The notes under the pieces are model-generated. The model was not told the DNA's origin, ran no database searches, and was given only the letters and a program-made list of their open reading frames with translations. The translations under genes and the position numbers were made by a program. From a virus, in IMG/VR virus record IMGVR_UViG_3300025620_000004, positions 1 to 64,000 of that record: DNA of 64,000 bases. The stretch is one strand, 5' to 3'. Numbering within the stretch: the first letter of the stretch is position 1; each line of letters begins with the position of its first letter. Positions 7,032-41,601 of the stretch are shown here, one piece after another.

Positions 7032-7032
7032 T

Positions 7033-7617: not shown

Positions 7618-7702
7618 GGTGTCAAGTGGCACTCTTTGCTAGGCCCTTTCCTGATATATCGGACACATTTTTTACCAAGGGCAGGACAATACGGAGAAAC
7701 AG

Positions 7703-7894: not shown

Positions 7895-7899
7895 TCTTT

Positions 7900-8208: not shown

Positions 8209-8519
8209 ACGACAAGAATTTTCATCCCGCAGACACTAATGGGGACGGAGAAGTTTCCGACGCCGAACAACAAATGTATATGGAATTCAAGCGCAAAGAA
8301 CTTGAAGACCAAGATGCACAGCGTGATGCAATGCGAAAGATGACATGGTTTTCCTTATCAGGAATGCTACTTTATCCTTTCGGCATATTCTGCACATCAT
8401 TATTCGGATTAGATAGCGCCGCTAAAATAATCGGTGATATTGCTCCCACTTACTTTGTAGCTATCGCAGCCCTGGTTTCAGCATTCTTTGGAGCCAACGC
8501 ATATGCAGGGAAGAAATAA
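8202..8519 (+). CDS. EF-hand-containing two-TM membrane protein (holin-like)
   Basis: DTNGDGEVSDAE canonical EF loop; two hydrophobic helices; basic C-terminus. Confidence 0.6.
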   Translation: MVDDKNFHPADTNGDGEVSDAEQQMYMEFKRKELEDQDAQRDAMRKMTWFSLSGMLLYPFGIFCTSLFGLDSAAKIIGDIAPTYFVAIAALVSAFFGANAYAGKK

Positions 8520-9097: not shown

Positions 9098-9221
9098 ATT
9101 ACTAAAGAAAAAAGATGCATTAATACTTATAGGTGTTTCCACAGCAGTTCTACTGTTTGGAAATCTATTAGCCTGGGCTGGTTTAGCTTGGGGACTCTGG
9201 TCAATCATAAAAGAAGATTAA
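9087..9221 (+). CDS. 44-aa membrane peptide (absent from ORF track)
   Basis: MLHKLLKKKDALILIGVSTAVLLFGNLLAWAGLAWGLWSIIKED; GAGG RBS; exactly fills the gap to terL. Confidence 0.55.
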   Translation: MLHKLLKKKDALILIGVSTAVLLFGNLLAWAGLAWGLWSIIKED

Positions 9222-9222
9222 T

Positions 9223-10527
9223 ATGGCAGTAGAAGTAAGCCGCAGAGATATTATCTCTGACGAAATAGTTGAATTAAGATCTGAGACAAAGTTTCTAAAA
9301 CTTCCAATAGCTCCGTACTTGGAGCTATTGAATGTCACTCCCTTACCGTCGCAGATAGCAATTATCAATGCGATTAACGATCCTAAATATCGTTTTGTCT
9401 CTGCCGCAGTCTCGCGCAGACAGGGTAAAACCTACATAGCCAATATCATTGGACAGCTCGTGTCTTTGGTACCTGGCTCCAACATTCTAATAATGTCCCC
9501 CAACTACTCTTTGTCTCAGATCTCTTTCGATCTACAGAGAAATCTAATTAAACATTTTGATTTAGAGGTTACAAAAGATAACGCCAAGGATAAAGTTATC
9601 GAAATCTCTAATGGATCTACTGTAAGAATGGGTTCTGTTAATCAGGTCGATTCTTGTGTAGGTAGATCTTATGACCTTATCATCTTTGATGAGGCCGCAC
9701 TCGCTGACGGCAAGGACGCCTTCAACGTTGCACTTCGTCCTACTCTGGACAAGCCAAACTCCAAAGCAATCTTTATTTCCACACCACGGGGTCGTAACAA
9801 CTGGTTCTCTGAGTTCTTCTACAGAGGCTTTTCTGACGACTTCCCAGAATGGGCATCAATAAGAGCAACTTATCGAGACAACCCTCGTATGTCTGAGTCT
9901 GATATTTCAGAAGCGCGTAAGTCTATGTCAGAGGCTGAGTTTAAGCAAGAGTACGAAGCTGACTTTAATACTTATGAAGGACAGATCTGGAAGTTTAACT
10001 TTGAGACACAGGTGAAAGACCTGTCTCAGTTTGATACTAGTAAGATGGACGTCTTTGCGGGGTTGGACGTAGGTTTCAAAGATCCAACAGCAATGTGTGT
10101 AATTGCCTATGACTGGGATGATGACAAATACTATCTAGTGGATGAGTATATGAATAATGAGCGCACTACAGAACAGCACGCAGAAGAGATACAAAAACTC
10201 ATTAACAAATGGGATATAGACTATATCTATATTGATTCCGCAGCACAGCAAACTCGTTTTGACTTAGCGCAGAACTATGATATTAGTACTATTAACGCGA
10301 AGAAGTCTGTACTGGATGGCATTGGTCATGTGTCTGCAATTATTGATAATGATAAACTTTATGTGGACCAGGAGTGTAAACAATCGCTCATATGTCTAGA
10401 CTCTTATCAATGGGATCCTAACCCAAATCTAATAAGAGAAAAACCGAAGCACAACATGGCTTCGCACATGGCAGACGGTCTTCGCTACGCACTTTATTCA
10501 TTCCAAACCTCACAAGTGTCCTTCTAG
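9223..10527 (+). CDS. terL: terminase large subunit (T5-type)
   Basis: Walker A SRRQGKT, Walker B LIIFDEAA, ISTPRG coupling motif, nuclease GLDVGFKDPTA and SHMADGLRY. Confidence 0.97.
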   Translation: MAVEVSRRDIISDEIVELRSETKFLKLPIAPYLELLNVTPLPSQIAIINAINDPKYRFVSAAVSRRQGKTYIANIIGQLVSLVPGSNILIMSPNYSLSQISFDLQRNLIKHFDLEVTKDNAKDKVIEISNGSTVRMGSVNQVDSCVGRSYDLIIFDEAALADGKDAFNVALRPTLDKPNSKAIFISTPRGRNNWFSEFFYRGFSDDFPEWASIRATYRDNPRMSESDISEARKSMSEAEFKQEYEADFNTYEGQIWKFNFETQVKDLSQFDTSKMDVFAGLDVGFKDPTAMCVIAYDWDDDKYYLVDEYMNNERTTEQHAEEIQKLINKWDIDYIYIDSAAQQTRFDLAQNYDISTINAKKSVLDGIGHVSAIIDNDKLYVDQECKQSLICLDSYQWDPNPNLIREKPKHNMASHMADGLRYALYSFQTSQVSF

Positions 10528-10550
10528 CGATACCTACTCAAAAATAGTTA

Positions 10551-10579
10551 TTGACAAGTCACCCCAAAGCCGATATAAT
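10551..10579 (+). promoter_or_regulatory. late-region sigma70 promoter
   Basis: AAAAATAGTTA-TTGACA-17-TATAAT. Confidence 0.85.
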
Positions 10580-10612
10580 TCTTTAAATGAAAAATCGAGG
10601 AACCAAAGGAAA

Positions 10613-10978
10613 ATGCCTAAGCTAAAACGCGATGTAGTAAAATATGTACGAGATAAGGCAAAGTCCAAGTATGCAAAGGGTTCCTCTTGTGAGATTTGTG
10701 GCGAAACAGAGCAGTTAGACTTTCACCACTTTTACAGTTTAACTCCTTTGTTGAATCAATGGTTAACAAAGAACAAACACAATCCTGAGTACATTCAGTC
10801 ACTTCGGGATGACTTTATAGAAGAGCATCATGCTGAGCTATATGACGACACAGTTACTCTGTGCCATACTCATCATTTAAAATTGCACTCAATTTACGGC
10901 AAAGACCCTGGGCTTGGAACAGCTAAAAAGCAGATGCGCTGGGTGGAGATTCAAAGAGAAAAACATGGCTTGGTATAA
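10613..10978 (+). CDS. HNH-type nicking endonuclease (T5 terL-portal position)
   Basis: CEICG...LDFHH...VTLCHTHHLKLH; syntenic with the T5 nicking endonuclease. Confidence 0.85.
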   Translation: MPKLKRDVVKYVRDKAKSKYAKGSSCEICGETEQLDFHHFYSLTPLLNQWLTKNKHNPEYIQSLRDDFIEEHHAELYDDTVTLCHTHHLKLHSIYGKDPGLGTAKKQMRWVEIQREKHGLV

Positions 10979-12468: not shown

Positions 12469-14448
12469 ATGAATAAAATCTTTAATCTGACGTCTACTTT
12501 CAAGACTCATGCAGAAGATGACGGCTCTGTAATGATTCGTGGAATGGCAAGCACGGCTGACTTTGATCGCGCGGGTGACTCCATTTCAGCAGAAGCATGG
12601 CAGAAGGGTGGACTAAAGAACTTTGAAAAGAATCCAATTATCCTGTTTAATCATGACTATGATAAACCAATTGGTCGAGCTACAGGTCTGAAGTCCGGAC
12701 CAGATGGCTTGGAGCTGGAATGTAAGATTAGTAAGGCCGCGCCTGCTAATGTTGCTCAACTAGTTAAAGACGGTGTTCTTGGGGCCTTTTCCGTAGGTTT
12801 CCGAGTCAAGGATGCTGATTATATTAAGGAAACCGACGGACTAATGATTAAGGACGCTGAATTATTCGAGGTATCAGTTGTATCTGTACCCTGCAATCAG
12901 TCAGCTACTTTTTCGCTCGCGAAGTCTTTCGACTCAGATGCTGAGTACGAAGAATTCAAAAAAACTTTCACAAATCGTGTAGATCTAGCAGGTCAGTCTC
13001 TGGCTAAGGATGAAGTTATTACTTCGGGAATAGCTAGTGACACACCTCAAAGCGCGGAGAAATCCGTAGATCAGGAGATCAAGATGGATAATCAAAACAT
13101 CGACTTGGAAGCTTTTGCAAAGAAGGTAGCTGAAGACACAGCTGCTAAGATTGCTATGAAGCAAGCCGAGCAAAAAGCAGCTGAGCAAGCAGAAGTAGAA
13201 AAAGCAGCTGAACAGGCTTCATTTATTGAAGCACAAGAAATCAAAGTTAAGACTGGTATTCAGTCTGGCGTTGAATCACTAATGAGCAACTTCGAAGCTA
13301 AGCTGACTGAAAAGGACGCTAAGATGGACGAAGTACTCGCATCATTCAAAACAGAACTAGAAGAGAAGTCTTCTGAAATCGAAGCTATGCGTAACAGCAA
13401 GCGTACTTTCGGTGACCGTTCTGAAAAAGGCGACGTTACTAAGTGGGGCAAAGACTTCATGCACGCTTCATTGCTTGGTACTATGACTGGCAAGGGCATG
13501 GACACTGATTTTGCTCGTGGCGTTATGGAAAAAGCTGGTATCGACTATGCTAGCAACGCTGGCGACATCGATCAAGAAGTTGCTCGTCAAATCGAAAAAG
13601 AAGTTACTCTAAACTTGCGTACAGCTGGTCTGTTCCGTGAGATTCAGGTGAATGGTGCTGCTACTGTAATGCCAATCCAGCCTGACGTAGAGGCCGCTAC
13701 TTTCCAAACTGGTGCAGCTGCAGCAGGTAACTTGGAAAACCGTGGTGCTTCAGACAACACTTTCAAGCCTTCACAGGTAATCTTGAACGCTTATCGTTTG
13801 ATTAGCCAGACTTTCATGGACAACAACGTAGATGAGCAAGTTCTTATCAACCTAATGCCTATGCTTGTTGACTCAGTAGCACGTGCTCACGCTCGCGCTG
13901 TTGATAACGCTATCATCAACGGTTCAGGTTCTATCACTGGTCTTGACGGCTATGCCGCAGCTAGTGGTTCAAGCATCGACCTCGATGGCGGTTCAATCGC
14001 CGCAGGTAACTCAGCTACATTGACTGCAGCTGGCCTCCTTACTGCTCGTAAAGCTATGGGTAAGTATGGTGTTAACCCTGCTGATGTTGCATACATCGTG
14101 TCACAAGCTCGTTACTTCGAACTTATCGAAGATGCAGGCTTCCAGGACGTTACTGATGTAGGTTCTGATCTGGCAACTAAGATCACTGGTCAAATCGGAT
14201 CTGTATTCGGTTCACCTGTAATCGTATCTGACAGCTTCGCTACTGAAGGTGCTGGTGTACCTGTAGCCTTCGCTGTTAACTCACGTAACTATGTTATCCC
14301 ACGTCTACGTGGCGTAACTGTTGAGACTGACTATGAAGTTGGTAATCAGCGCAACGTAGTAGTTGCTTCACAAGCCCTAGGCTTTGAAGAGCTAGTAGCC
14401 GGTGCGACTGGTAACGAACCTGTAGTTAAGATTGACTGCGTAGCTTAA
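12469..14448 (+). CDS. prohead protease fused to major capsid protein (delta domain + HK97 fold)
   Basis: N-term IRGMAST, ILFNHD..KPIG, AFSVGF, LFEVSVVSVP (S78 protease); coiled-coil scaffold; C-term DNAIINGSG, GSVFGSPVIVSD. Confidence 0.95.
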   Translation: MNKIFNLTSTFKTHAEDDGSVMIRGMASTADFDRAGDSISAEAWQKGGLKNFEKNPIILFNHDYDKPIGRATGLKSGPDGLELECKISKAAPANVAQLVKDGVLGAFSVGFRVKDADYIKETDGLMIKDAELFEVSVVSVPCNQSATFSLAKSFDSDAEYEEFKKTFTNRVDLAGQSLAKDEVITSGIASDTPQSAEKSVDQEIKMDNQNIDLEAFAKKVAEDTAAKIAMKQAEQKAAEQAEVEKAAEQASFIEAQEIKVKTGIQSGVESLMSNFEAKLTEKDAKMDEVLASFKTELEEKSSEIEAMRNSKRTFGDRSEKGDVTKWGKDFMHASLLGTMTGKGMDTDFARGVMEKAGIDYASNAGDIDQEVARQIEKEVTLNLRTAGLFREIQVNGAATVMPIQPDVEAATFQTGAAAAGNLENRGASDNTFKPSQVILNAYRLISQTFMDNNVDEQVLINLMPMLVDSVARAHARAVDNAIINGSGSITGLDGYAAASGSSIDLDGGSIAAGNSATLTAAGLLTARKAMGKYGVNPADVAYIVSQARYFELIEDAGFQDVTDVGSDLATKITGQIGSVFGSPVIVSDSFATEGAGVPVAFAVNSRNYVIPRLRGVTVETDYEVGNQRNVVVASQALGFEELVAGATGNEPVVKIDCVA

Positions 14449-25214: not shown

Positions 25215-28200
25215 ATGAGACATGGCGGAAATGGCGGTGGTGGTGCCGGCACAGGTAACAGTGGTAATTCCAATCCAGGAGGTACAGGCACATCTAGCAA
25301 TAATGCTGCTACAATTAGTACAAGCGCTAGCGATGCGCAGCTTGTTTCTATTACAGATGTTATTTCAGAAGGCCCCATACTAGGTTTAGTAGACGGTTCG
25401 GCTTCTGTATTCCTGAATAATGACAGAATTCACGAAGTATCTGCGGCAGGGCAACGTGTATCTCATGGCCCTATGACTATCACTCTTACTAATGGGTCTA
25501 CTTCAGCAACAATTAATAATGCAACTTCTACCACTCCCTTGACTGCAAATGCCTCGCTAGGAGCACAACTATTAATACGAGGAGGAAATTTAACAGAAAC
25601 AAGTGTAACAAGTAGTTATGATACTAGACATAAAGTAAGTTTATCTACTTCTTCAAGTACTTTTACTCAAACTATGGTTACCGCAGTTGGTCAACGAGCA
25701 AGACCAGATAGTTTAGTTCCTGGGCGTATTAAACCGACGGGTAGCAGTACTACTCCTGACGGCCTTCCTATAGAAGGTTTTATATGGCGTAGAGTTAGCG
25801 GTACCGAGGCTCTTTGGAGATCAGGTGCTTTCGGTGATTATAACGATTTCAGGCTCGATGACGCAACGTACAAGCTAGAACTAGATAAAATAGTAAATAT
25901 AAATGCAGGAGGTATTAATGGCTCCTCTATAACACTTGCAAGTGCTTGGGACGGAATATCGGGGACATATAGCTGGGATAAAATAAGTGTAGTTAATATG
26001 GATATTTCTGAGGTAGGCAGTAGAGCTTCTCAGCGAGTACAAGGTGGTACTGTTAATTTCAGACCAGGCACATTAAACCAAACTCCCATGCGCAGCGGTG
26101 GCGAAACTGCAATTAGTAGAACTATTGGCGAACAAATGGAGGTGGGAACTGCTCGATTTTTAGTGGGCAGTGGTAACTGCGGTCTCACAGAAGCTCAGCT
26201 TCTAGAAGTGGACAAACTAAGATGGCGTATTACTTATCCTGCAGGATTTAAAGCAATCAGCGGTAAAGGCAATGATAAAACTACTTACATAAGGTATAGA
26301 ATAAGTATAGCAATAAAAGAGGAAGGAGACTCTGATTTCGGAGGTTTTACTATTATTAGAAATCCTCTAACTCATAGTGGTAACTATACTAACTCTAAAA
26401 CTTTTGAAAGCGACTTAAATCTTGAAAGATTTCGCCCTTTCACAGACTTCAAACTAAAATTAGAAAGACTAGATACAGATGACGACCCCGGTTTTAAATC
26501 TGTAGGACAAACTTACAAAGACTGGACAAATGTTACTGCAGGTAGTCTTACAGGCGTGACTTCTATTCTAAATGAAAAACTTAACCATCCTTATACTGCT
26601 ATGGCTGATGTTTCTTTTAGCACGAAGCAGTATCAAGGTATACCTCAAAGAACTTATGATCTATACGGTAAAATGGTTAGAGTGCCTTCAAACTATGTTA
26701 CAAGAGAAGAAGCAACCAATGGAGTAGCTTCTTATAATAGAAATACAAGTACTGGAGTCATTACTAGCAATTACCAAGACTGGGACGGGGATTTTCGAGA
26801 TGAATTAGTTTATAGTAACAACCCTGCTTGGATTTACTATGACATTCTTACTAATAATAGATACGGTTTGGGTTCCTTCATTAAAGAAGTGGATATAGAT
26901 AAGTATGCTCTTTACCGCGTTGCAAGATATTGTGACGGCTTAGTTCCCGATGGAAAAGGAGGACTAGAGCCTAGGTTTACATTAAATACCTACTTGACAA
27001 AAGGGGCAAATAGTTATAAAGTTCTCAAAGACTTAGCAACTAACTTTTTAGGTTTGCTTTACTACTTAGATGGACAGCTTTATACCTCTCTTGATGCTCC
27101 AGCAGCTCCGGTCTATACATTCAATAAAACTAATGTAATAGATGGTACATTTAGCTACGAGAGTTCTTCGGAGAAAACTAGAAGCAATCAAATTATTGTA
27201 AACTGGAATGACCCAACAAAAGACTATAAGATGGAGCCTTTAATCGTTGAAGATGAGCGAAATATAGTCAATACAGGCAGAATTATATCTGAAACTGCAG
27301 TTGCTTTCGGCTGTACTTCAGAAGGGCAAGCTACACGATACGGTAAATGGAAACTATGGACAGCAGCAAATCAGAAAGAGATAGCTACTTTTTCAGCAAG
27401 CCTAGAAGGTGCATTTGTAGCTCCTGGCGATATAATCAATATCCAAGATGCGGATAGATATGCTGTAAGACTGGGCGGACGAGTTTCAAATACAGGAACT
27501 CTTAGCACTACTACTATACCTTTAGACTCTACTGTTCTTTTGAATTCAGGATCTACATATACTTTAAGCTTGGTTTATCCTAAGCCTGCTGCATTCACTA
27601 GAGAAGCTGTTACTATAAGCGGAGTTAGTTATGAAGCAGGAGATTTAATACATCAAGCGTATGTTGATGGCTCTTTAACAGTAATTGATACTAAAGAAAA
27701 GTCTGTAAACGCTAAAGTATCTGCATCTTCCGGAGCCGAACCTTTAACACTTGACTTCAATGCCAATCTACGAACAGAAACAAAAGATATAACTTCTAGT
27801 CAAATTGGAAGTTCTGTAACTTCTATCACTGTGACCTCTGCATTTACAGAGGCTCCTACTAGAGAATCCTTGTGGGTTCTTCAAGAGACAAAAACTGGAT
27901 TACAGGTAAAAGGGTCTAAAAAAGAATACAAAGTTTTATCTATCTCTGAAAACTCTGGCAATGTCTACGATATAACGTGTATTGAACATTATGACAGCAA
28001 GTGGACTTCTGTAGAAGAAGATTTTACTACATACATACAAGGAGATTTAGAGCCCTCTCTACTAAGCACAGATGTTGTTCCGCCTGTCGAAAACTTGATA
28101 GCAAGAAGTCACGGCAGAGATAATGGTACAGCCCATGAAACCTTACTTGTTTCTTGGGATCCACCAGGGGCAGGACAAGCTTACGTTAGAAACAGTACCG

Positions 28201-31200
28201 GAGGTAGACATAATCAAACGGTTAGTCAAGAATACGAATACTTACTTGGATATATCGTAGAACACAATTTACCCGAATATGAAAATCCTATGAGGGTAGG
28301 CAGGGACACAACTGAACTTTTATTTTCGGATTTAGTCCCAGACGACTATACAATAACGGTAAGAACAGTTAATGCGATAGATAATGTATCAGAAGCAATT
28401 AGTGTTCAAACAACTATAACTGATCGTTTCCAGGATGCTATACCCAGATTCCCCTTAGGTCTTCCCTATGGTGGTACGTCTAATGTTGCTATAAAAACCA
28501 TAAACAGTACTTCTGGCGATTCAGACTACGGATTATTTGAGTTGGCAAAAAGTGTTTACATCTTTAGTCCTGAACAAACAAACGGGTTCGGTATAAACCA
28601 GACTTCAACAGCAGCTTCTACATATCAACAAGATGTATCAGGAATTGCGGAAACAGCTGCAGTAGCTTCTTCAGAGTCTGGTACTTTTATTGACAGGCAT
28701 TATTATGTATCTTTAAACTCAGCTGTAGCCACTGATAACCTCACACTACTTAAATATAATAAAACACCAAATCACCGTGTTCCATATTGGTATGATGCGG
28801 GGAACGGTAGTAATACAACTGGTTTAACGAATCTTACAGGTACTATAAGTGTATCGGGTTCTACTGTTACAGGTTCTGGTACAAGTTTTACTTCTGAACT
28901 AGTAGTAGGAGCACTTCTACAAACAACATCTACTGCAGCAGCTATAGTTACCTCGGTAGTTAGTGACACAGCCGTTTATATTGATAGAATTTTACCAGAC
29001 GGATCGGGTATAACCGCTCAGACTAACAATCATAGATTTGATTTTGATAATGAAACTATTATAGCCAAAGTTTACGCTACAGATAATGGAGCAGCCAATA
29101 AAGTATTTTCGATGGAGCCTTATATGTCGTTGGACGCAAATGTCCAAGCACAACAAGGTGTTACCAGAACTCTATACTACAGAGCTACTAATAATGGAGC
29201 AGCCGGCACTATTAATACTACTACAGGTACTTTTGACGACCCTGCAACTGGAGCAGCCACAGGGTGGCAGTTAGCAAATCCTGGACTACAAGCCAATGGC
29301 GATATTATTTATGCTATAACTCGTATCTTTACCAACGATGGTCTAGCCCCTCAAGAGGCTAGTTGGTCAACCGCTTCTATTGTTGCAAGACGACAAGATG
29401 GTGCGGCAGGTAATGCTGCAAAAGTAGTATCTTTGCGCGCTAGTAAATCAGTTATAGAGTATGCTGCAGATGGTACTACTGGCTCAGGTCAAACTATTAC
29501 TTTAACTGCGGAATCAAAAAACTTCGATGATGGATACTTCAGGTTCACAGCAGATGATGGCTCTTTTACTACAATAGACTGGGTTGATGGTACTACCGCA
29601 AATACCAAAACAGCCACGTATAGTATACCTACAAGCTACAATGCAGACCCTATTACTTTTACTGTACAGGTTAAAGAGGGTAGCTCTGGCTCCGAAGAAG
29701 CTAGAGATGTTCTTACTATTCCTTCAATTAAGCCAGGTGTTGACGCAATAGATGCACTAACTGTAGTTATGACAAACGAAGCTCATGCAATTCCTAGAGC
29801 TTCGGCAACGGCTACACCTGACTTCACAGGCTCAGGAAATACTATTAGAGTCTTCGAGGGGACAACAGAACTAGACCACGATAATACAGGCACCGCTGCC
29901 AGTCATTATAAAGTTGTTACTACAGGCTCTACTAACTGTACTCCAGGTAATTTAACTGGTGAAGGTTCTAATGTTCTTTCGGCAACCTTTGACCAGATCA
30001 CGGGAATAACAGGAAATACGGCACTCGTAAAATATACTATAACAGGTAAGCGAGCAGACGGAACAGCTTTCTCCCTTGTTAGATTCCAGTCTTTAACTAG
30101 AACAACGGACGGAGCTCCTGGTAATCCCGCTGTAGATGAAAAAACAGTCATTGTATACAAGAAGTTTGCCGCAGGAGTATCAGCGCCTACAGCAATTACA
30201 TTTACTTCTGGCAATAATGCAACAGATCAAACCCACTCGAATCCTACAAATGAGCTAGACGGTTGGACTATTGCTTATCCTTCTATAAGTGTTGAAGGCG
30301 ATCGAGTTTATTCAGGACAAAGAACCTTCACATTAACTGGAGGCGATAGCTCTTGGACTTTCAACGGACTAGTTGCAGAAATAAAGACAGGGCCTAGAAC
30401 AGCTACAATACAGTTGCATTATTCTGCTGCTGTGACTGATGGAAGTACTCCTGCAAAGCCAACTACTTCCAATACTCACACATTTAATTTTGCAGCTAGT
30501 ACTTTTGGGACTATAAAAACAGGATGGCAGCATGGAGCACCAACGTATGCTTCGGGTAACTCTAATAAATACTACTACTCTTTTGCGACTATTACCGAGT
30601 CTTCTTTTGGAGGTTCTCAGACTATAACTTTCGGTAATACAACTCAAGCTATAGGATTCTCCGGCTTAGTTACCTTTACTTCAGCAGGTGTGTTAGAGGA
30701 CGACCAATATTCGATTACGCCTCTTACTACTCACCAAGATGTAAGTAGTTTTATGGAGGCAGCAGATGTCGCAGACCATATTGGTGGAGCCAACACCTCA
30801 ACTATTGATGGAGGTAAGATCAACGCAGGCAGCTCTGTTACAGTAGGAACTAGCGGAACTAACCGAGCAGGCTTATCAGGAGTAGGAACTGCAGAAACCG
30901 ATATTAGAGTTTTTTCGGGAGCAGCTTTTGCCAACAGAGCAACAGCACCTTTTAGAGTAACACAGGCAGGTGAATTTAGGTCTTCTACTGGTATTATAGG
31001 CGGATTTACGTTCGGTGATGATGCCATGACCACTAGCCAAGACACTATATTAAGACTTGGTTCTGATCTCGGAAATAACATAGATCAAAGTGTGACTTTA
31101 TCTTCCAGGTCTGAAGATGATTATGTTATTTATGCAGGTCATGCTCCTACAGATGATGATCCAGTGACTACAGACGCTCCTCCTCCTTTTGGTGTAGAAA

Positions 31201-32735
31201 AGAACGGTAATGTAACTATGCGGTCTTATCAGCTTACTGATACTGCAGGCGCTATTGTATTTGACTCAGAAAACTTATTAGGTGGACCCGTACTAGCTCA
31301 GATTCAGAACTTGGTAGGGAATTTTACAGATAGTGTTACTACCTCTATTCACGCTTCCGGTCATATCAAAGTAGAACTAGGGGCTGCTCAAAACGTACAA
31401 ATTGGTTATGAAGTACCTCTAGGAAATCCCTATGTGAGTGACGTATCTACAAGTGTAGCTGACGTTATGAATGCGTTACCTTCAGCCATTAAAGTAAATG
31501 TTGAGTACTCTACTAATAATGGAGCATCTTGGAGTTTATTTGGTGCTCAAACTTTTAGTAGACTATCTAGTACAGACGCCAATGCTACTACAAGCGCCTC
31601 TCAGTATCTTGTTCATGGAGATTCTTATGATGCTCGCTCGGGCGGTACCAGATACGTAGCACATATTGTTAGTAATAAAGGAGCAGTATCTGCAACAGGC
31701 GGCTTAAAAGGCACTATAACAGGTTCAGGAAATTTATCAGCAGGTACTTACTTATTTAGAATAGATGATACTTCAGGTACTTCCGGTAATTCAGGAATTG
31801 TATGGACTGCCGGGTCTTATACTGGCTATGGCTATACCTTCCATAAGTATGGTAGCGGCTCCTCGAACGACCCTGCTCAGGCTTTTGCAAAAAATGCAGA
31901 TAGAGTGTACATTGTAGGTTCTAGTTCTTCGACAGGAGGTACAGCAGGTGCTGGTTATACTATTAATACAAATACTAGTCCACCTCACGTTAAAGATTCT
32001 ACTTTTAATATAGAGTATATGCCTATTACAGGAGGTACTTTTACAGGTGCGCTTAACTGGGGAACAGACACTGCCAGCATAAACTATGGTAACTACGGTA
32101 CGGGTACTGATGTTTTTAGCGTGAATCTAGGTAGCAACTCTAACGGGATAGTATTTGGACTGAATGGTAATGCCTTGCAATTGCAGGACAATCTTAGTGC
32201 ACATCATTCATTTGATAATAATGGAGACATTAGGTTCACAGGAGACTTAAAACAGCTCGACGATGGAGATACTAAGATATCTTTCACCAACGACAAAATA
32301 AGTTTTCTAGCCGGTAATGCTACAATGATGGAGTTAGTTGAAGTAAGCACAGGATATGATTACGTTAGACTAGGAAATACTGGTGATGGCAATGATACCA
32401 TTACGTTTAATCTATCAGCAGGCTCAGGTGTCTTTACAGGAAATGTAACAGCTTACTCAGATATAAGTCTTAAAGAAAATATAGAAGTTATTGATAATGC
32501 CGTAGATAAAGTCAGTAAACTAAGAGGTGTTACTTTTGACCGAATCGATAAAGAAGCCATTCCCAGACAAACGGGACTTATCGCTCAAGAACTAGAAAAA
32601 GTGTTGCCTGAAGCTGTGGAAACTAATGAGCTATCAGGTATAAAGTCGGTAGCTTATGGCAATGTCGTAGGTCTTTTAGTAGAAGCAATTAAAGAACTCA
32701 AAGAAGAAATCGAAGAGTTAAAAAGGAGTAAATAA
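25215..32735 (+). CDS. central tail fibre / host-specificity protein (lambda gpJ-like) with C-terminal S74 chaperone
   Basis: DVISEGPI.GL, YSNNPAWIYYDILTNNRYGLG, GGLEPRF, AFGCTSEGQA.R.GKW; FN3-like segment; AYSDISLKENI...GLIAQELEKVLPEAV. Confidence 0.92.
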   Translation: MRHGGNGGGGAGTGNSGNSNPGGTGTSSNNAATISTSASDAQLVSITDVISEGPILGLVDGSASVFLNNDRIHEVSAAGQRVSHGPMTITLTNGSTSATINNATSTTPLTANASLGAQLLIRGGNLTETSVTSSYDTRHKVSLSTSSSTFTQTMVTAVGQRARPDSLVPGRIKPTGSSTTPDGLPIEGFIWRRVSGTEALWRSGAFGDYNDFRLDDATYKLELDKIVNINAGGINGSSITLASAWDGISGTYSWDKISVVNMDISEVGSRASQRVQGGTVNFRPGTLNQTPMRSGGETAISRTIGEQMEVGTARFLVGSGNCGLTEAQLLEVDKLRWRITYPAGFKAISGKGNDKTTYIRYRISIAIKEEGDSDFGGFTIIRNPLTHSGNYTNSKTFESDLNLERFRPFTDFKLKLERLDTDDDPGFKSVGQTYKDWTNVTAGSLTGVTSILNEKLNHPYTAMADVSFSTKQYQGIPQRTYDLYGKMVRVPSNYVTREEATNGVASYNRNTSTGVITSNYQDWDGDFRDELVYSNNPAWIYYDILTNNRYGLGSFIKEVDIDKYALYRVARYCDGLVPDGKGGLEPRFTLNTYLTKGANSYKVLKDLATNFLGLLYYLDGQLYTSLDAPAAPVYTFNKTNVIDGTFSYESSSEKTRSNQIIVNWNDPTKDYKMEPLIVEDERNIVNTGRIISETAVAFGCTSEGQATRYGKWKLWTAANQKEIATFSASLEGAFVAPGDIINIQDADRYAVRLGGRVSNTGTLSTTTIPLDSTVLLNSGSTYTLSLVYPKPAAFTREAVTISGVSYEAGDLIHQAYVDGSLTVIDTKEKSVNAKVSASSGAEPLTLDFNANLRTETKDITSSQIGSSVTSITVTSAFTEAPTRESLWVLQETKTGLQVKGSKKEYKVLSISENSGNVYDITCIEHYDSKWTSVEEDFTTYIQGDLEPSLLSTDVVPPVENLIARSHGRDNGTAHETLLVSWDPPGAGQAYVRNSTGGRHNQTVSQEYEYLLGYIVEHNLPEYENPMRVGRDTTELLFSDLVPDDYTITVRTVNAIDNVSEAISVQTTITDRFQDAIPRFPLGLPYGGTSNVAIKTINSTSGDSDYGLFELAKSVYIFSPEQTNGFGINQTSTAASTYQQDVSGIAETAAVASSESGTFIDRHYYVSLNSAVATDNLTLLKYNKTPNHRVPYWYDAGNGSNTTGLTNLTGTISVSGSTVTGSGTSFTSELVVGALLQTTSTAAAIVTSVVSDTAVYIDRILPDGSGITAQTNNHRFDFDNETIIAKVYATDNGAANKVFSMEPYMSLDANVQAQQGVTRTLYYRATNNGAAGTINTTTGTFDDPATGAATGWQLANPGLQANGDIIYAITRIFTNDGLAPQEASWSTASIVARRQDGAAGNAAKVVSLRASKSVIEYAADGTTGSGQTITLTAESKNFDDGYFRFTADDGSFTTIDWVDGTTANTKTATYSIPTSYNADPITFTVQVKEGSSGSEEARDVLTIPSIKPGVDAIDALTVVMTNEAHAIPRASATATPDFTGSGNTIRVFEGTTELDHDNTGTAASHYKVVTTGSTNCTPGNLTGEGSNVLSATFDQITGITGNTALVKYTITGKRADGTAFSLVRFQSLTRTTDGAPGNPAVDEKTVIVYKKFAAGVSAPTAITFTSGNNATDQTHSNPTNELDGWTIAYPSISVEGDRVYSGQRTFTLTGGDSSWTFNGLVAEIKTGPRTATIQLHYSAAVTDGSTPAKPTTSNTHTFNFAASTFGTIKTGWQHGAPTYASGNSNKYYYSFATITESSFGGSQTITFGNTTQAIGFSGLVTFTSAGVLEDDQYSITPLTTHQDVSSFMEAADVADHIGGANTSTIDGGKINAGSSVTVGTSGTNRAGLSGVGTAETDIRVFSGAAFANRATAPFRVTQAGEFRSSTGIIGGFTFGDDAMTTSQDTILRLGSDLGNNIDQSVTLSSRSEDDYVIYAGHAPTDDDPVTTDAPPPFGVEKNGNVTMRSYQLTDTAGAIVFDSENLLGGPVLAQIQNLVGNFTDSVTTSIHASGHIKVELGAAQNVQIGYEVPLGNPYVSDVSTSVADVMNALPSAIKVNVEYSTNNGASWSLFGAQTFSRLSSTDANATTSASQYLVHGDSYDARSGGTRYVAHIVSNKGAVSATGGLKGTITGSGNLSAGTYLFRIDDTSGTSGNSGIVWTAGSYTGYGYTFHKYGSGSSNDPAQAFAKNADRVYIVGSSSSTGGTAGAGYTINTNTSPPHVKDSTFNIEYMPITGGTFTGALNWGTDTASINYGNYGTGTDVFSVNLGSNSNGIVFGLNGNALQLQDNLSAHHSFDNNGDIRFTGDLKQLDDGDTKISFTNDKISFLAGNATMMELVEVSTGYDYVRLGNTGDGNDTITFNLSAGSGVFTGNVTAYSDISLKENIEVIDNAVDKVSKLRGVTFDRIDKEAIPRQTGLIAQELEKVLPEAVETNELSGIKSVAYGNVVGLLVEAIKELKEEIEELKRSK

Positions 32736-33665: not shown

Positions 33666-34004
33666 ATGAGTGCAGCCCGCTACAACCTAGTTATTGACCA
33701 AGGTTCCGACTTTGCCATTAACTTTACTGTTAAAGACAACGGATCAGTTAAAAACCTGACAGGCTATTCTGCGCGTGCTCAAATGAGAACTTCAAAGACA
33801 GCTTCCTCAGTTGCGGCTACTTTTAATTGCGCTATTAATACTCCAGCAAACGGAACAATTACAATGTCTTTAGCAAATTCAGTGAGCAGCCCGTTAACCG
33901 CAGGTACTTACGTTTATGATTTAGAAATCTTCACCGCTAACAATGCCAGTGTAACTAGATTAATTCAAGGGTCTGTAGACCTCACTCAAGAGGTTACCCG
34001 ATAA
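33666..34004 (+). CDS. fibre collar/adaptor protein (BppU-N/LtfC-like Ig fold)
   Basis: NLVIDQGSDF, NLTGYSARAQMR, GTYVYDLEI, RLIQG.V. Confidence 0.7.
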   Translation: MSAARYNLVIDQGSDFAINFTVKDNGSVKNLTGYSARAQMRTSKTASSVAATFNCAINTPANGTITMSLANSVSSPLTAGTYVYDLEIFTANNASVTRLIQGSVDLTQEVTR

Positions 34005-35699: not shown

Positions 35700-38600
35700 A
35701 TGACTATTAAGGTTTGGAATGGTTCCGCAGTACAAGAACCAGAGCAAATAGTAGTTAAAGCTGCAGCGGGAACGTTGCGGTTTGTAAACTATGTCGTACA
35801 GAAAGTTACAGATGGAAGTCTGAATACTGTATGGAATGCTATTTACAATACAAGCCGATCTACCGATACCTCTAGAAGCTCTACAACTACTTTTACGACT
35901 ACCTTTGACACTAGTGCAAGTACCAATATTAATACTACTACGGGATTTGATACAATCAGAGGTACTACCAGAAGCACAAGTAGCACGTTTACTACTGCGT
36001 ATGATACTTCTGCTGTTACTTCCAAGTCTACTACTACCGCTTACAGTACCACATTCGGTACAACTGCAAGTACAACCACTACTTATGTGAGTAACTTCGA
36101 TACAACTCGTGGTACTACAGTAAATACCACTACCTCTTTCAATACTACTTTTGCTACATCGAAAGATACTACTACTGCGTTTACCACTACTTTTGACACT
36201 GCTACTAGTGTGGCTACTACTACTGCGTTTACAACAACGTTTGAGACTACTCGCGCCACTGCGGTAGATACCACCACTACATTTACTACGACTTTCGCAA
36301 CTAGTAAAACAACTAATACAGTATTTACTACTACGTTTAATACTACTACTACTCGTACTACCACTACTGCGTATACGACTACTTTCAACACGAGTAAAAC
36401 TACTCTACGAAATACCACGACCACGTACACTACTAGCTTTAATACTACAAAAAGCACTGTTACTACGTTCAATACTGAATTTGCTACAGGTACGAGCAGA
36501 GCTACCACAACCACGTATACTACTACGTTTAACACTACTAGATCTACCACGATAGATACTACTACTGCTTATACTACGACTTTTAATACTACTCGATCTA
36601 CAACGATAGATACGACTACTACGTTTAATACTACGACTACTCGTAGTACTACGACTACGTATACAACTAATTTTAATACTTCAAGAGGTACTTCTAAGTC
36701 TACTACTGTAAACACTACTACGACTTTTGATACTTCTCGAAGCACTTCTAAATCTACAACTACTGTATTCAATACTCAGACTTCAAGAGGTACAGATAGA
36801 GCAACCACTACGACCTTTAATACTTCTCGAAGCACAAGCAGGGGCACCAGTAAGTCTACCACTACTACATTCCTAACAGGAACCTCACGTAGTACAACAA
36901 CAGCTTTTGTTACTCAAACAAGTAAGTCAACCTCCAGAGCAACAACGTCTGTATACGATACTAGTAGAGGTACTTCCCGAGTTACTAGTAAAGCCACTAC
37001 TACTGCTTTTGCTACGGGTACAAGCCGAAGCACTACTACAGCATATGCTACGTCGAGAGGCACAAGTCGTGCTACCAGTAGAGGTACTACTACAGTATTC
37101 GGAACAACTACAAGCCGAGGAACAACGACAGCCTTTAACACGACGACTACTTTTACTACAACTCGTGCCTCCAACACTGTATATGCCACAAGCAGAACTA
37201 CCGGTACTTCGAGAAGCACAACAACAGCTTTTGCTACCGCTACAAGTCGAAGCACTGGAGAAAGTAGAAGCACAACTACTACGTTTAATACAAGTAGAGG
37301 TACAACTTTTGGTACCACTACTGTATTTGTTACAGCTACTTCAAGAGGTACTGGCGAAAGTAGGGGTACTACTACGAGTCGAGGAACGGCTACGAGTCGT
37401 ACAACATCTTTCAATACCACTACTTCTTTTGGTACTACGACTGCGTATACTACTACAAGTTCATTTACTACAACTTTTGCTACCACGACTGCATACACAA
37501 CTACAACTGCATTTACCACAACTTTTAGTACCACGACTGCGTATACAACTACAACCTCGTTTACGACTGCATTCGGCACTACTACAGCGTACACAACTAC
37601 TACTTCGTATACAACTACTACTACATTTGGTACTACTACTGCATATACTACATACTATACAGCTAGTACGAGCAGAGGTACTACTACGTCTCGTGGTACG
37701 TCTCGTGGTACGTCTCGTGGTACAAGCCGAAGCACTACTACTGCCTTTGTGGGGCAGACTGCCTATGCTAGTTTAGTAGTACGAACTACTACGTTTACTA
37801 CGTATTATAATACCGCGTATACTACATACTACTATTCTCGTAGCCATACAAGCAGGGGTACTTTAAGAGCAACCAGTAGAAGCACAAGTAGAACTACCAC
37901 ATTCTATCAAGATGTAAGACATGATACGGCAAAAAGTCGAGGAACAACCACTGCTTTCACTACTAGTTATACTACCTACTGGAGTACAACTTTTGGTACT
38001 ACCACTACTTTCGGTACTGCGAAAAGTCGCGCAACAAGCCGTAGTACTGCTACAAGTAGAGGTACAGGAGAATCTCGAGGAACAGGGGAGTCCAGGAGCA
38101 CTACTACTTCTCGCGGTACAAATAGAGCAACAGCAGAATCTAGAGGCACTGCTACAAGCAGAGGCACTTCTAGAGCAACAGCAGAATCCAGAAGTACTGC
38201 TACAAGCAGAGGCACTTCTAGAGGTACAGGAGAGTCCAGAAGCACTACTACAAGCAGGGCAACAGGAACTAGTCGTACAACTACATTTACTACAACTACT
38301 TCTTTCGGTACAACCACAGCGTATACAACAACTACTACGTTTGGCACTGCCACAAGTAGAGGTACTACTACGAGTCGTACTACTACGTTCGGAACCAATA
38401 GAAGTACAACTACAGCGTATACAACAACTACTACGTTTAATACAATTACCAGTAAAGCTACTACTACTGCTTTTGGTACGACTACTACTTTTGACACAAG
38501 TAAGAGTACTACCACAACCTATAACACAAATAGGGCAACAGGAACGAGTCGAGGTACTACTACTGCTTTTGTTACAGCAACGAGTAAAAGTACAACCACA

Positions 38601-39926
38601 GCGTATACTACATCTTTTACTACTACTTTCGGTACTAGTAAAAGCACTACTACTTCGTTTAATACTACAACTACTCGTAGTACAACGACTACGTATACCA
38701 CTGCGTTTTCTACAACTTTTAATACGTCGTTAAGTACAACTACTACATTTACTACTACATTTGGCACTACGACTACTAGGGCTACAACGACTGCGTTTAA
38801 TACTAATACTACGCTTGCTACTACAACTGCTTATACTACTACGTTTACTACTACTTTTGCAACAAGTAAAAGTACTACTACCGCGTTTACTACTACTTTT
38901 GCGACAGCTACAAGTAAAAGTACAACTACTACTTTCAATACTACGTTCGCTACAAGCAAAAGTACTGGCTGTGTGTATACTACTGCATATACTACTACAT
39001 TTGGTACCAGTAATATAACATCAAAGGCAACTACGACAGCATTCCTAACCGCTACTAGTAAAACAACTACTAGTACGTATACTACTACTTTTGCCACAAG
39101 TAAAGGTACTTCGAAAACGACCACTAGTACATATACTACTATATTTAATACTAGTAATGTAACCGATAAATCAACTACTACGGCGTTTAATACTACTACA
39201 TCTCGTTCTACTACGAAAGACACTACTACTACGTTTATAACTAGTAGAACTACTACGAATGAAACTGGTTGCACCTATACTACTACTTTCGCAACGAGCC
39301 GAGGTACAACTAAAGACACAACTACTGCATTCTCTACTGCCACATCCAGAACTACTAATTTTGATACTACAACTGTATTTGATAGTTCCAGAAGTACAAC
39401 AAAGAGCACTAGTAGCCAGTATACCACTGTCTTTAATACTAACCGAGGCACTAGCAAGTCCACTACCTCTGTATTTAATACTGCAACCAGTAGAGGCACT
39501 GATCATCAGACAAGCACCGTATATGATACAACAGGAGGAACTTCTAGAGTTACTTCGAGTGCATTTGTTACTGTATTTAATACGACTGTAACTACGGATA
39601 AAAGTACCACTACAGCATTCGATACCTCCAGAGCCACTACTAAAAGCACTACCAGTAATTATACTACTACGTTTGCTACTTCTAAGAGCACGCAAGTTAC
39701 TACAACTACTGCATTCTCTACAGTTTATAATACTACTCGTAGTACTACTACTACGCGTACAACTACTTTTGAAACGAGCAAATCGACTTCAAGAGCTACC
39801 ACTACTACGTTCGGAACAAACACAGTTGTTTATGAGCGTATCACAAGTACAGGAGTTGAGACCGAGGTTTCATCTTCTTCTGCACACAACTCACGATATT
39901 GGGATGGATCACAATGGACGGAATAA
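35700..39926 (+). CDS. 1408-aa Thr-rich self-complementary fibre protein (predicted giant beta-hairpin)
   Basis: Uninterrupted ORF; 4/6-residue units ending in F/Y/W or R/K, mirrored about residue 715; W(N/D)GS motifs near both termini. Confidence 0.9.
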   Translation: MTIKVWNGSAVQEPEQIVVKAAAGTLRFVNYVVQKVTDGSLNTVWNAIYNTSRSTDTSRSSTTTFTTTFDTSASTNINTTTGFDTIRGTTRSTSSTFTTAYDTSAVTSKSTTTAYSTTFGTTASTTTTYVSNFDTTRGTTVNTTTSFNTTFATSKDTTTAFTTTFDTATSVATTTAFTTTFETTRATAVDTTTTFTTTFATSKTTNTVFTTTFNTTTTRTTTTAYTTTFNTSKTTLRNTTTTYTTSFNTTKSTVTTFNTEFATGTSRATTTTYTTTFNTTRSTTIDTTTAYTTTFNTTRSTTIDTTTTFNTTTTRSTTTTYTTNFNTSRGTSKSTTVNTTTTFDTSRSTSKSTTTVFNTQTSRGTDRATTTTFNTSRSTSRGTSKSTTTTFLTGTSRSTTTAFVTQTSKSTSRATTSVYDTSRGTSRVTSKATTTAFATGTSRSTTTAYATSRGTSRATSRGTTTVFGTTTSRGTTTAFNTTTTFTTTRASNTVYATSRTTGTSRSTTTAFATATSRSTGESRSTTTTFNTSRGTTFGTTTVFVTATSRGTGESRGTTTSRGTATSRTTSFNTTTSFGTTTAYTTTSSFTTTFATTTAYTTTTAFTTTFSTTTAYTTTTSFTTAFGTTTAYTTTTSYTTTTTFGTTTAYTTYYTASTSRGTTTSRGTSRGTSRGTSRSTTTAFVGQTAYASLVVRTTTFTTYYNTAYTTYYYSRSHTSRGTLRATSRSTSRTTTFYQDVRHDTAKSRGTTTAFTTSYTTYWSTTFGTTTTFGTAKSRATSRSTATSRGTGESRGTGESRSTTTSRGTNRATAESRGTATSRGTSRATAESRSTATSRGTSRGTGESRSTTTSRATGTSRTTTFTTTTSFGTTTAYTTTTTFGTATSRGTTTSRTTTFGTNRSTTTAYTTTTTFNTITSKATTTAFGTTTTFDTSKSTTTTYNTNRATGTSRGTTTAFVTATSKSTTTAYTTSFTTTFGTSKSTTTSFNTTTTRSTTTTYTTAFSTTFNTSLSTTTTFTTTFGTTTTRATTTAFNTNTTLATTTAYTTTFTTTFATSKSTTTAFTTTFATATSKSTTTTFNTTFATSKSTGCVYTTAYTTTFGTSNITSKATTTAFLTATSKTTTSTYTTTFATSKGTSKTTTSTYTTIFNTSNVTDKSTTTAFNTTTSRSTTKDTTTTFITSRTTTNETGCTYTTTFATSRGTTKDTTTAFSTATSRTTNFDTTTVFDSSRSTTKSTSSQYTTVFNTNRGTSKSTTSVFNTATSRGTDHQTSTVYDTTGGTSRVTSSAFVTVFNTTVTTDKSTTTAFDTSRATTKSTTSNYTTTFATSKSTQVTTTTAFSTVYNTTRSTTTTRTTTFETSKSTSRATTTTFGTNTVVYERITSTGVETEVSSSSAHNSRYWDGSQWTE

Positions 39927-40051
39927 CCCTCAAAGAATTAAACCACAAAATAGAAACAACTTTAGAAATAGTCATGGAGCACTTCGTAGAAATGGAAGAG
40001 CGAATGGAAGATTTAGAGACTCAGCTTGAGGAATTACAGGATGGGGCTTAA
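39914..40051 (+). CDS. 45-aa acidic coiled-coil protein (absent from ORF track)
   Basis: MDGITLKELNHKIETTLEIVMEHFVEMEERMEDLETQLEELQDGA; overlaps both neighbours by 11-13 nt. Confidence 0.7.
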   Translation: MDGITLKELNHKIETTLEIVMEHFVEMEERMEDLETQLEELQDGA

Positions 40052-40913
40052 AAGACTAGCAGATAAAGATGAGCTAGGAAATAAGGCAGCACACTTCTTT
40101 AAGTCTGGTAATATAATGCGTACAGACGAAAACGATGAAGTTACAAAACTGAAAGAGCTGCTTCCTGCCCGAGGAAACTGGGGAACACCTTTAGAATACG
40201 ATGTCTGGTACGATATTGCGGAAGAAGAAATTGCTGGGTATACGTACACCGATTGTTTTTCTAAATGTATAATGATACGTGTCGCGTCTTACGAGAAAGC
40301 AAATCGTACAATGAGACTAGCAGCCAAAGAGCCTATAAGCGAAGAAGGTTTAGCTATTTTTAACGAACTCCGTGATAATAGTCACGATAAGTATAAACTT
40401 AGCAAAAGAAAACAAAAGCAGCATAAGTTTGTAATCTTTCTCCCAGGTACTAATATCATAGACAAAGTTTTAAATTACGATAAAGCTAAAAGGGCAGTGG
40501 CACAAGGTGCTGTACTAAAATGCCATCCTTTAACAGCTCCCGGAATGGTAGCATATCTCAAATCAGAGTTTGGTAGAGAGAATGTTATAGACAAGAAACT
40601 GTCTGGCCATAAACTTCTGGATGAGGCTGATATTGTAGGTTGTTGTAGCAACTCTGAAATGGGCTTGCTTGCAATTGCGAAAGGGAAAACAGTATACACT
40701 TTTGACTCAAAACCTGATTTACAGACTACTTACGGAGCAATCTACAGAGCAATCTGGGGTAAGGATGATATGCCTAGCGTGAATAGATTTAAGAGATTAC
40801 TTTCCTCAAAGTATTCCGGTATCATTCCTTACTTTATAGACAACCCGCAAGAAAGAATAAACTATTATTTTAATTTTTGGAAAGCAAACCCCCATGCAAT
40901 ACCTCGTAATTGA
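40041..40913 (+). CDS. GT-B glycosyltransferase-like protein (KpsS/KpsC capsule-synthesis-like)
   Basis: VLKCHP, SGHKLLDEADIVGCCSNSEMGLLAIAKGKTV resembling KxHP and LL..A..V...NSxxGxxA...GK.V of that family. Confidence 0.6.
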   Translation: MGLKRLADKDELGNKAAHFFKSGNIMRTDENDEVTKLKELLPARGNWGTPLEYDVWYDIAEEEIAGYTYTDCFSKCIMIRVASYEKANRTMRLAAKEPISEEGLAIFNELRDNSHDKYKLSKRKQKQHKFVIFLPGTNIIDKVLNYDKAKRAVAQGAVLKCHPLTAPGMVAYLKSEFGRENVIDKKLSGHKLLDEADIVGCCSNSEMGLLAIAKGKTVYTFDSKPDLQTTYGAIYRAIWGKDDMPSVNRFKRLLSSKYSGIIPYFIDNPQERINYYFNFWKANPHAIPRN

Positions 40914-41601
40914 AAATGAGTTTACAGCCCTTACTGTAAACTCTATAAAACAAAACATGCCTGATGCAAAATACGTGACTGCCCCTATGGGAGAGGGCAG
41001 GATTCAGACAGCTTTAAAACTGTGCACAGAGCCTACTATGGTAGTTACAGGCGGTATTATACTCAATATAAAAGAAGGAGATTTACCAGACCCTAAAGTG
41101 CTGGAAACTAAACACTTGGCAATGAGTAGAGAAGCAGTTTTTGCAGATCACCCTAGATGGAACCGGAACTATGAACTCATAAAAAGTCGTTTGCATGACG
41201 GAGTTGTGGATATGTCTATTTTTATTATTAACCCTGTAAAATGGAAAAAGATACCTAAAAAAGATATTAATTTTTTACTTGGAAAAAAGATATTGTATAT
41301 GCCAAGATATATGAATCATAGAGATGATCCAACACTAGGAACTTGTATGGGTGGAAAAGATATACTGGCATATGCGTCTTTGGGAGAGGACGCCTCTGTG
41401 CATAACTATCTTACTCACCTATACTCAGGAAAAGCTAGTGTAAGAGAGACGTTTGGATGTTGTTTTGATAAGCTACTACCCTATACGGAAGGTTTAGACG
41501 AAAGAGAAAAAGAGATAGTAGAAAAACTAGGTAATCTTACAAAGGTAAGGGTAGGAAAGTTAAGGCAGATGATGATAGACAGAAAAAAAGCCCCTGATTA
41601 A
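40894..41601 (+). CDS. GT-A/GT8-like glycosyltransferase-like protein (degenerate)
   Basis: TVNSIKQNMP, MSIFIINPVKWK (cf. NxGV..INL.KW), LYMPRYMN, SVHNY; no clear DxD. Confidence 0.45.
   Translation: MQYLVIENEFTALTVNSIKQNMPDAKYVTAPMGEGRIQTALKLCTEPTMVVTGGIILNIKEGDLPDPKVLETKHLAMSREAVFADHPRWNRNYELIKSRLHDGVVDMSIFIINPVKWKKIPKKDINFLLGKKILYMPRYMNHRDDPTLGTCMGGKDILAYASLGEDASVHNYLTHLYSGKASVRETFGCCFDKLLPYTEGLDEREKEIVEKLGNLTKVRVGKLRQMMIDRKKAPD

Follow-up and report, generated by a model that had tools for sequence, protein, structure and literature searches.

Mirror-matched arms in a threonine-rich protein of a marine phage point to a fold-back fibre

A stretch of 64,000 nucleotides of viral DNA (positions 1 to 64,000 of the IMG/VR record IMGVR_UViG_3300025620_000004; below, the window) contains a threonine-rich gene, a single open reading frame (ORF) of 1408 codons at 35700..39926 on the plus strand, stop included. 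We find that the two arms of its product, here called W, mirror each other: they match in length, their aromatic residues keep a mirrored register, and relatives of different length differ by equal pieces at mirrored places. Most likely the arms pair antiparallel and in register. W would then probably be a virion fibre of a marine T5/lambda-like siphophage, the chain of which runs to the distal tip and returns. The protein is 42.6% Thr and 13% Ser; Phe, Tyr and Trp together make up 10.5%, Arg 6% and His 0.3%.

The relatives of W were gathered by scans of viral and metagenome contigs, with a neighbouring gene to begin with and then with W, which gave 33 distinct complete proteins. A representative search with the family profile returned 74 matches, mostly fragments, and added two complete members (P0015, P0016). 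After one member whose gene lies in two overlapping frames (L079) and all frames running off contig ends had been left out, 34 complete proteins of 302–1781 amino acids (aa) were kept. They share a common plan. Between an N-terminal domain of about 50 aa and a C-terminal domain of about 33 aa that ends in YWDGSQW, a central domain free of repeats, marked by the motifs TY.RG and Y.I.R, separates a Thr-rich left arm from a Thr-rich right arm. The arms range from about 70 to about 820 residues. In the subfamily of W the central domain is degenerate and Thr-rich, and both motifs are kept (residues 709–714 and 735–740 of W).

For each protein two distances were taken: on the left, from where the N-domain ends to TY.R, and on the right, from Y.I.R to where the C-domain starts. 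Over the 34 proteins the two distances follow each other with a slope of 1.04 (r 0.997), and over the 26 distinct length pairs with a slope of 1.03 (r 0.996). The difference, left minus right, is roughly constant across the family (median 50), because the left distance takes in part of the central knob. Among 16 proteins of the W subfamily it is 28–29 in 13, 26 in two and −3 in one (L028), and each arm varies by 186 aa. A preliminary description of this DNA, made without database searches, had called the protein a hairpin with matched arms, and these lengths, together with the register that follows, bear it out.

The register was read from the aromatic residues: the left arm was reversed, its aromatic positions were correlated with those of the right arm, and shuffles of the repeat units served as the null. 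For W the mirrored correlation reaches r=0.47 at one offset; the direct order gives 0.24, and none of 300 unit shuffles exceeded 0.25. Locally, a left residue i faces a right residue j with i+j=K, where K is 1440 for left residues 50–338 and 1436 for left residues 340–535, so that about 480 residues are covered with one 4-residue shift. At these mirror positions 36/46 left-arm aromatics face a right-arm aromatic (4.9 expected); counted from the other side, 36 of the 52 right-arm aromatics from residue 901 on have an aromatic partner on the left. The spacings 12, 14, 16 and 18 recur in mirror order on the two arms. Shuffling the right-arm units never reached 36 matches in 2000 trials, even within blocks of three (mean 20, maximum 30), and reversal of the unit order left only 6. 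Chance is excluded for the mirror register of the outer arms. Among 16 family proteins tested in the same way, 12 beat all 300 unit shuffles and the direct order (mirrored r 0.43–0.77), and mirrored aromatic matches lie above expectation in 32/32 proteins. The register is also kept (13/22 aromatics matched, 2.0 expected) in L073 (6078–7865 of its contig, 596 aa), which has no globular central domain and carries a short Gly-rich stretch (about residues 301–315) between its arms.

The two arms also compensate each other in composition. In facing windows of 16 aa the aromatic counts are anticorrelated (r=−0.47 for W, with a shifted-register null minimum of −0.23; −0.51 for L003 and −0.47 for L017), and in the subfamily the Arg/Lys content of an arm rises with the aromatic content of the arm it faces (correlation 0.44–0.46). 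The summed count stays at about 3.2 aromatics per facing window pair in 14/14 proteins tested. In L017, judged by eye, the aromatic-rich and Arg-rich tracts lie on swapped arms compared with W. This mirrored amino-acid pattern does not originate in DNA symmetry: the residues encoded by the two halves of an inverted repeat would not be the same, and a search for such repeats yielded only three short pairs (26–30 nucleotides, nt) and none that spans the arms. With no cause in the DNA, the simplest explanation is that selection maintains a structure with contacts between residues i and K−i.

Alignments of homologues of different length carry the same rule further. The preliminary description had proposed that the protein lengthens by equal-sized insertions on both arms, and in close relatives indels are indeed equal and sit at mirrored places. 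By alignment, W and L014 differ by +32/+32, L021 and L017 by +134/+134, L063 and L048 by +24 (147–170) and +24 (312–335), and L063 and L076 by +4/+4; by the difference of anchor distances, L054 and L057 differ by +62/+62 and W and L017 by +186/+186. The strict form of the proposal does not hold, since there are unbalanced variants. L028, with its left arm longer by +44 and +32 and its right arm by +32 and +76, carries a surplus of 32 aa on the right compared with its relatives. L041 and L043/L044, which share 98–99% of their DNA, are set apart by a 16-aa unit confined to the right arm; in L043 the two copies of this unit are alike in 44/48 nt. L041 and L043 have equal outer-arm matches (9/18 each), a measure that does not single out the balanced form. 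W has an imbalance of its own, the 4-aa register shift. All these cases fit the suggestion, made in the same description, that selection acts through bulged intermediates.

In the subfamily, the changes in length are confined to the distal part. When 12 orthologues were aligned with W, every indel fell between W residues 478–537 (first gaps) and 891–916 (last gaps). The sums of the borders of this cassette, 1394–1453, lie around K, and the indel-bearing cassette is accordingly symmetric about the register. Identity between W and L014 is 82–100% outside the cassette and 44–76% inside it. Along the gene the following features can be laid out:

35700..39926, plus strand: coding sequence of the putative Thr-rich fold-back fibre protein, 1408 aa; from the ORF, its composition, orthologues with the same frame and conserved ends, and repeat-copy differences that are mostly synonymous.
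35700..35846, plus strand: N-terminal domain, residues 1–49; conserved family-wide, the anchor motif W.A[IV][YF] ending at residue 48–52 in 30/32 proteins.
35847..37229, plus strand: constant part of the left arm, residues 50–510, with 12–18-aa units bearing aromatic pairs; ungapped against 12 orthologues before W residue 478–537, K=1440 and then 1436.
36516..36623, plus strand: left pair of 18-aa units, residues 273–308; 54-nt period in Tandem Repeats Finder (TRF), copies alike in 17/18 aa and 46/54 nt, present in 13/13 subfamily proteins.
37230..38444, plus strand: distal variable cassette, residues 511–915, with the inner left arm, the tip and the inner right arm; holds all subfamily length variation, delimited by the gap borders and the drop in identity to L014.
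37434..37625, plus strand: left 16-aa array of the TTTAY type, residues 579–642, running on to about 655; TRF 48-nt period, 3.9 copies, 78%.
37743..37940, plus strand: degenerate central (tip) domain, residues 682–747, with the motifs TYYYSR (709–714) and FYQDVR (735–740); aligns with TY.RG and Y.I.R of shorter members.
38076..38267, plus strand: right 16-aa array of the R.T.ESR..T.SRGTS type, residues 793–856; TRF 48-nt period, 2.9 copies, 89%.
38445..39824, plus strand: constant part of the right arm, residues 916–1375; ungapped against 12 orthologues after W residue 891–916, with mirrored aromatics.
39060..39167, plus strand: right pair of 18-aa units, residues 1121–1156; copies alike in 13/18 aa and 38/54 nt, present in 13/13 subfamily proteins, its aromatics mirroring the left pair.
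39825..39923, plus strand: C-terminal domain, residues 1376–1408, ending RYWDGSQWTE; conserved in every family member, with a DUF2510 match below cut-off.

The four repeat tracts among these had been noticed before and were all recovered, by TRF and/or protein alignment. The left 18-aa pair comprises residues 273–290 and 291–308 (TRF 36516–36638, 2.2 copies, 85%); the right pair, residues 1121–1138 and 1139–1156, is seen in the protein, without a TRF call at the DNA level. That the two pairs face each other follows from the register i+j=1440, derived independently from the aromatics, which pairs the 18-spaced F277, Y291, F295 and F309 on the left with F1163, F1149, Y1145 and F1131 on the right. 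In the left 16-aa array (TRF span 37419–37606) neighbouring copies are identical in 39/48, 36/48 and 32/48 nt, and in the right one (TRF span 38123–38261) the best copy pair reaches 45/48. Here the facing arrangement stands as to place, with left 575–655 opposite right 781–865, the site of the R.T.ESR 16-mers; the register in this zone is extrapolated. The matched repeats of W are local cases of the general mirror rule. The 18-aa pairs do not record a lengthening of the W lineage: both stand at the same positions, ungapped, in 13/13 subfamily proteins (1408–1781 aa), which marks them as old units rather than insertions of this lineage. The copies of the left pair are alike in 16–17/18 residues in W, L001, L023 and L014 and in 12–14/18 in the other subfamily proteins, a distribution that fits homogenisation, as after gene conversion.

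In the fold-back structure that we propose, the N- and C-domains would share one end, and the central domain would occupy the other, as a small beta knob in most relatives and in degenerate form in W. Residue i would lie opposite K−i, and each arm would be a string of 12–18-residue units with two aromatics four apart. As facing units are equal in length, their aromatics would meet and form a cluster, and an arm without aromatics (SRGT/GESR units) would be faced by an arm with more of them (TTTAY units). Aromatics at i and i+4 on both strands may all point to the same side and pack against each other in the manner of a beta ribbon, and burying this side would probably need several chains. Phage fibres are usually trimers, and by analogy with these other fibres the W fibre is probably trimeric too. 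Register would be set by a “vernier” of 12/14/16/18-residue units, together with aromatic–aromatic or aromatic–Arg pairing across the arms. Because the arms must stay in register, the fibre could change its length only by equal changes on both arms. Extrapolated at about 3 Å per residue, the ribbon would span from about 20 nm to more than 200 nm in the family. We offer it as a tentative but serious possibility that such proteins form a new class of phage fibre, in which one chain makes a very long two-stranded antiparallel ribbon, probably in threes, with a vernier-set register and a length that evolves by compensatory indels and swaps of sub-hairpins.

Several observations weigh against this picture. 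The 34 proteins are relatives, which makes for fewer independent trials than rows, and two of them are outliers in arm length (left minus right 122 in L080 and 72 in L064). Four of the 16 proteins tested for register, the shortest ones (471–518 aa), are not clearly above the null, as 6–23 of 300 shuffles did as well as the real order, and for L070 and L053 the direct order scored at least as high as the mirrored one. Because the right arm of W carries no aromatics among its 16-mers, the register there is not measured but extrapolated, on the basis of the outer arms and of equal arm lengths. AlphaFold2 (AF2) monomer models gave no three-dimensional support for arm pairing, the arms staying below 30 in pLDDT, the model's local confidence score. 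The model of L054 (357 aa, 8 sequences) has arms at about 23 and is confident only in the central domain (150–226, about 86); that of W residues 136–1304 (13 sequences) has a mean of 28.7 and is unusable.

The main rival keeps the antiparallel arms and places them between chains: two or more extended chains would lie head to tail, with pairs of N- and C-domains at both ends of the rod and the central domains in the middle. It predicts the same i+j=K register, the same matching of arms and the same paired indels, and nothing in the present data separates pairing within a chain from pairing between chains. We nevertheless consider it unlikely. Phage fibres are polar, with one end on the virion and the other on the host. 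The central domain is compact on its own in AF2, and L073 has only the short, turn-like Gly-rich stretch near its centre. In T4 gp37, moreover, each chain makes its return within itself (PMC6957217).

Less probable still is that the arms do not pair at all and are Thr-rich spacers, disordered, mucin-like or independent solenoids, whose symmetry is incidental or comes from two anchor points on the virion that hold the protein as a loop. AF2 does leave the arms unstructured (pLDDT 22–30), and similar Thr-rich repeats end the T4-like baseplate-wedge proteins, in which the mirror signal is not above the direct order. Spacers and solenoids, however, could do without matching lengths and without a mirror order in the lengths of their units, and the 36/46 mirrored aromatics, their loss on local shuffling of units and the aromatic/Arg compensation would be left unexplained.

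The preliminary description had also considered a dedicated mechanism that duplicates equal units on both arms in one event; although close relatives often differ exactly equally (+24/+24, +32/+32, +134/+134), we regard this as highly improbable, as inserts that face each other have unrelated sequences and look like the neighbouring units of their own arm, copies have diverged unequally on the two arms (46/54 on the left against 38/54 nt on the right for the 18-mers, 85% against 70%, and at best 39/48 against 45/48 nt for the 16-mers, 81% against 94%), strains as close as L041 and L043/L044 differ on a single arm, L028 is unbalanced by 32 aa, and no inverted or direct DNA repeat joins the two sites.

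Independent indels under selection, together with exchange of the distal cassette, appear to be enough to explain the matched changes without any coupled mechanism. Tandem duplication and deletion would act locally on each arm, with selection sorting the products and unbalanced forms tolerated on the way. Recombination in the conserved outer arms may also exchange the distal cassette as a whole: the tip and the distal segments on its left and right form one uninterrupted piece of the gene, so that a double crossover could swap a ready-matched sub-hairpin. The sharp, symmetric identity borders fit such swapping and are no proof of it. The mixed unit lengths of the outer arms would act as a lock on the register, and the uniform 16-mer arrays near the tip as a slippery growth zone where a shift by one full unit costs little, which may be why all length change is distal.

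At the level of populations the W gene is near-identical in the sequencing runs of 12 studies. No small indels were listed for it in the Logan contigs of four runs, which cannot show rare variants, and one 6.2-kb run contig is colinear with the gene and has the same length. Listed joints in run contigs were discounted, as their sides are short (21–40 nt) and their likeness is 88%. In two of four metagenome runs the summed word depth rises at 36264–36404 to about 29,000 (run X14) and about 7,400 (X20), compared with about 10 elsewhere. This peak is a mapping artefact and not a matter of copy number, because a plain (TAC)n/ACT run (TRF 36326–36368) is common to many unrelated contigs.

Other long ORFs cross 35700–39926, namely a Leu-rich frame and, on the opposite strand, a Val-rich frame; both are by-products of the ACN-codon repeats. 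We take the Thr frame as the coding one because its ends are conserved in all relatives and because the differences between repeat copies are mostly synonymous (6 synonymous and 1 non-synonymous between the copies of the left 18-mer pair).

The source record is a 72.9-kb virus contig with an estimated completeness of 72%. Upstream of the W gene come, in order, terminase, portal, a protease–capsid fusion, adaptor, tail terminator, major tail protein and tape measure, then lambda-type minor tail proteins, a J-like central fibre of 2506 aa and small fibre-associated genes, one of them LtfC-like. Given this order and a major tail protein that is about 33% identical to its counterparts in T5-like phages, the W gene would close the tail-fibre module of a marine T5/lambda-like siphophage. 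The LtfC-like gene (33666–34004, plus strand, 112 aa) has a weak match to an LtfC-like beta-sandwich and one to PHROG 3304, “L-shaped tail fiber protein assembly”; together with the 33% identity of the major tail protein it suggests the side-fibre region of a T5-like phage.

Some neighbours deserve mention in their own right. The central tail fibre (25215–32735, plus strand) has a lambda J-like core at residues 276–1069 (PHROG 31, E 4e-135), and over roughly its last 100–130 residues it resembles the C-termini of T4-type “long tail fiber distal subunit” families; by these matches it is a mosaic host-recognition protein. At 12469–14448 (plus strand), one frame of 659 aa matches both a head maturation protease (residues 9–258) and a major head protein (12–623) and looks like a protease–capsid fusion. 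Two genes of 295 and 235 aa follow the W gene at 40026–41601 (plus strand), the first belonging to PHROG 26179. They are kept as a pair: in more distant phages (L004–L010) they lie just upstream of the terminase gene, with no Thr-rich gene nearby.

Database searches placed W in no known family. Neither Pfam nor PHROGs gave a match above cut-off for W. DUF2510 (PF10708) scores 18.9 bits in W, 23.2 in P0015 and 20.0 in L069, below the gathering cut-off of 24, and these matches span only the last 13–16 residues. Among PDB chain sequences there were 0 matches, by phmmer with W and by hmmsearch with the family profile A3 (E<=0.1 and E<=1). A collection of cultured phages held no match to W, to a 489-aa relative or to 15 kb of DNA, with the low-complexity filter of BLAST on. 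Fold searches with the L054 model, which covered the central domain only, gave this domain no clear fold: in VIA, against solved chains, the best Z was 4.3, within the noise range, and in BFVD the top match was a protein of Rhizobium phage RL2RES with the receptor-recognising Gp38 domain (E 9.9e-3, TM 0.20, 96 columns). In the ESM Atlas no named protein looked alike, the best score of 0.81 being no better than chance. A literature search found no description of a Thr-rich fold-back phage fibre, and by a term search the words “hairpin”, “fold back” and “threonine” are all absent from the RBPseg fibre atlas text (PMC12143355). Two further proteins stand at the edge of the family. L079 (6495–10878 of its contig) is a member of about 1460 codons in two overlapping frames, 6495–8168 and 7906–10878, which may reflect a frameshift, an assembly error or a programmed shift. 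P0017 has 4608 aa, with 15 stretches that match the family profile (E 2e-32), and could be some other kind of giant Thr-rich repeat protein.

If the arms do pair, the family is a natural experiment on how a repeat protein changes its length under strict register, with halves that track each other almost residue for residue from 302 to 1781 residues. The natural variants unbalanced by 16 and 32 aa make the viability of unbalanced intermediates directly testable. Mirrored aromatic register and paired indels together would give a sequence-only signature for finding fold-back fibres in metagenomes, and they hint at a possible design rule for rods of tunable length. A long side fibre would then be the likely role of this large Thr-rich gene type in marine T5-like phages, for which there is no Pfam family above cut-off and no PHROG family.

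The only named sequence matches to W are T4-like “baseplate wedge subunit” proteins (PF23786; for example P0007 of Stenotrophomonas phage vB_SmaS-DLP_6), with E 3e-13 to 6e-4 over 5–37% of the query. They share the repeat flavour xTTxFxTxxxTSRxT, and the similarity is confined to their Thr-rich tails. They differ in their large N-terminal wedge domain, PF23786, which has no match in W, and they lack the N-, central and C-domains of the W family. We do not claim them as hairpins, as their mirror correlation of 0.30–0.42 is not above the direct-order values of 0.21–0.48. In Thr-rich beta-solenoids of the antifreeze type, built from TxT coils, one repeat makes one coil and needs no partner unit, and the mirrored unit-length order of W would not be expected of them.

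A parallel in logic is the RNA stem. There, two far-apart parts of the same molecule pair antiparallel; when one side changes, selection favours a fitting change opposite, and each nested segment is complete in itself. If our reading is true, the W family is a protein counterpart of RNA-stem evolution. The difference is that the polymer is a protein with putative pairing, and that the unit of compensation is an indel of 4–76 residues or a shift in aromatic content instead of a base pair. Indels also come in pairs in the coiled-coil arms of the SMC/Rad50 type, where the termini meet, a domain sits at the fold-back point and the strands of an arm must match in length. In SMC, a 49-nm arm is reported to join head and hinge (PMC5526789). 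These are alpha-helical heptad coiled coils in cellular ATPases, in contrast to the Thr/aromatic, beta-type spacing in a phage structural gene, and the likeness is an analogy only.

The nearest relative in principle is the needle of T4 gp37 (domains D10/D11). According to its structural description, it is a trimer in which the equally long stem segments 882–931 and 960–1009 flank the tip 932–959, the ends of this insertion lie together in the collar domain, the core is made from strand residues, and His-X-His motifs bind iron along the stem (PMC6957217). In the W family, as judged from sequence statistics only, the chain would likewise run to a tip and back through equal segments, with the tip as an insertion. 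W has no visible HxH array, with its 0.3% His, and no sequence relation to gp37, the PDB searches with W and the family profile having included the gp37 and gp12 chains. In the W family the hairpin would take up the entire protein; its arms, of some 70 to some 820 residues compared with 50 in gp37, are built from Thr-rich units of 12–18 residues. These proteins belong to no known family and would be a variant of the fold-back fibre principle seen in the gp37 needle.

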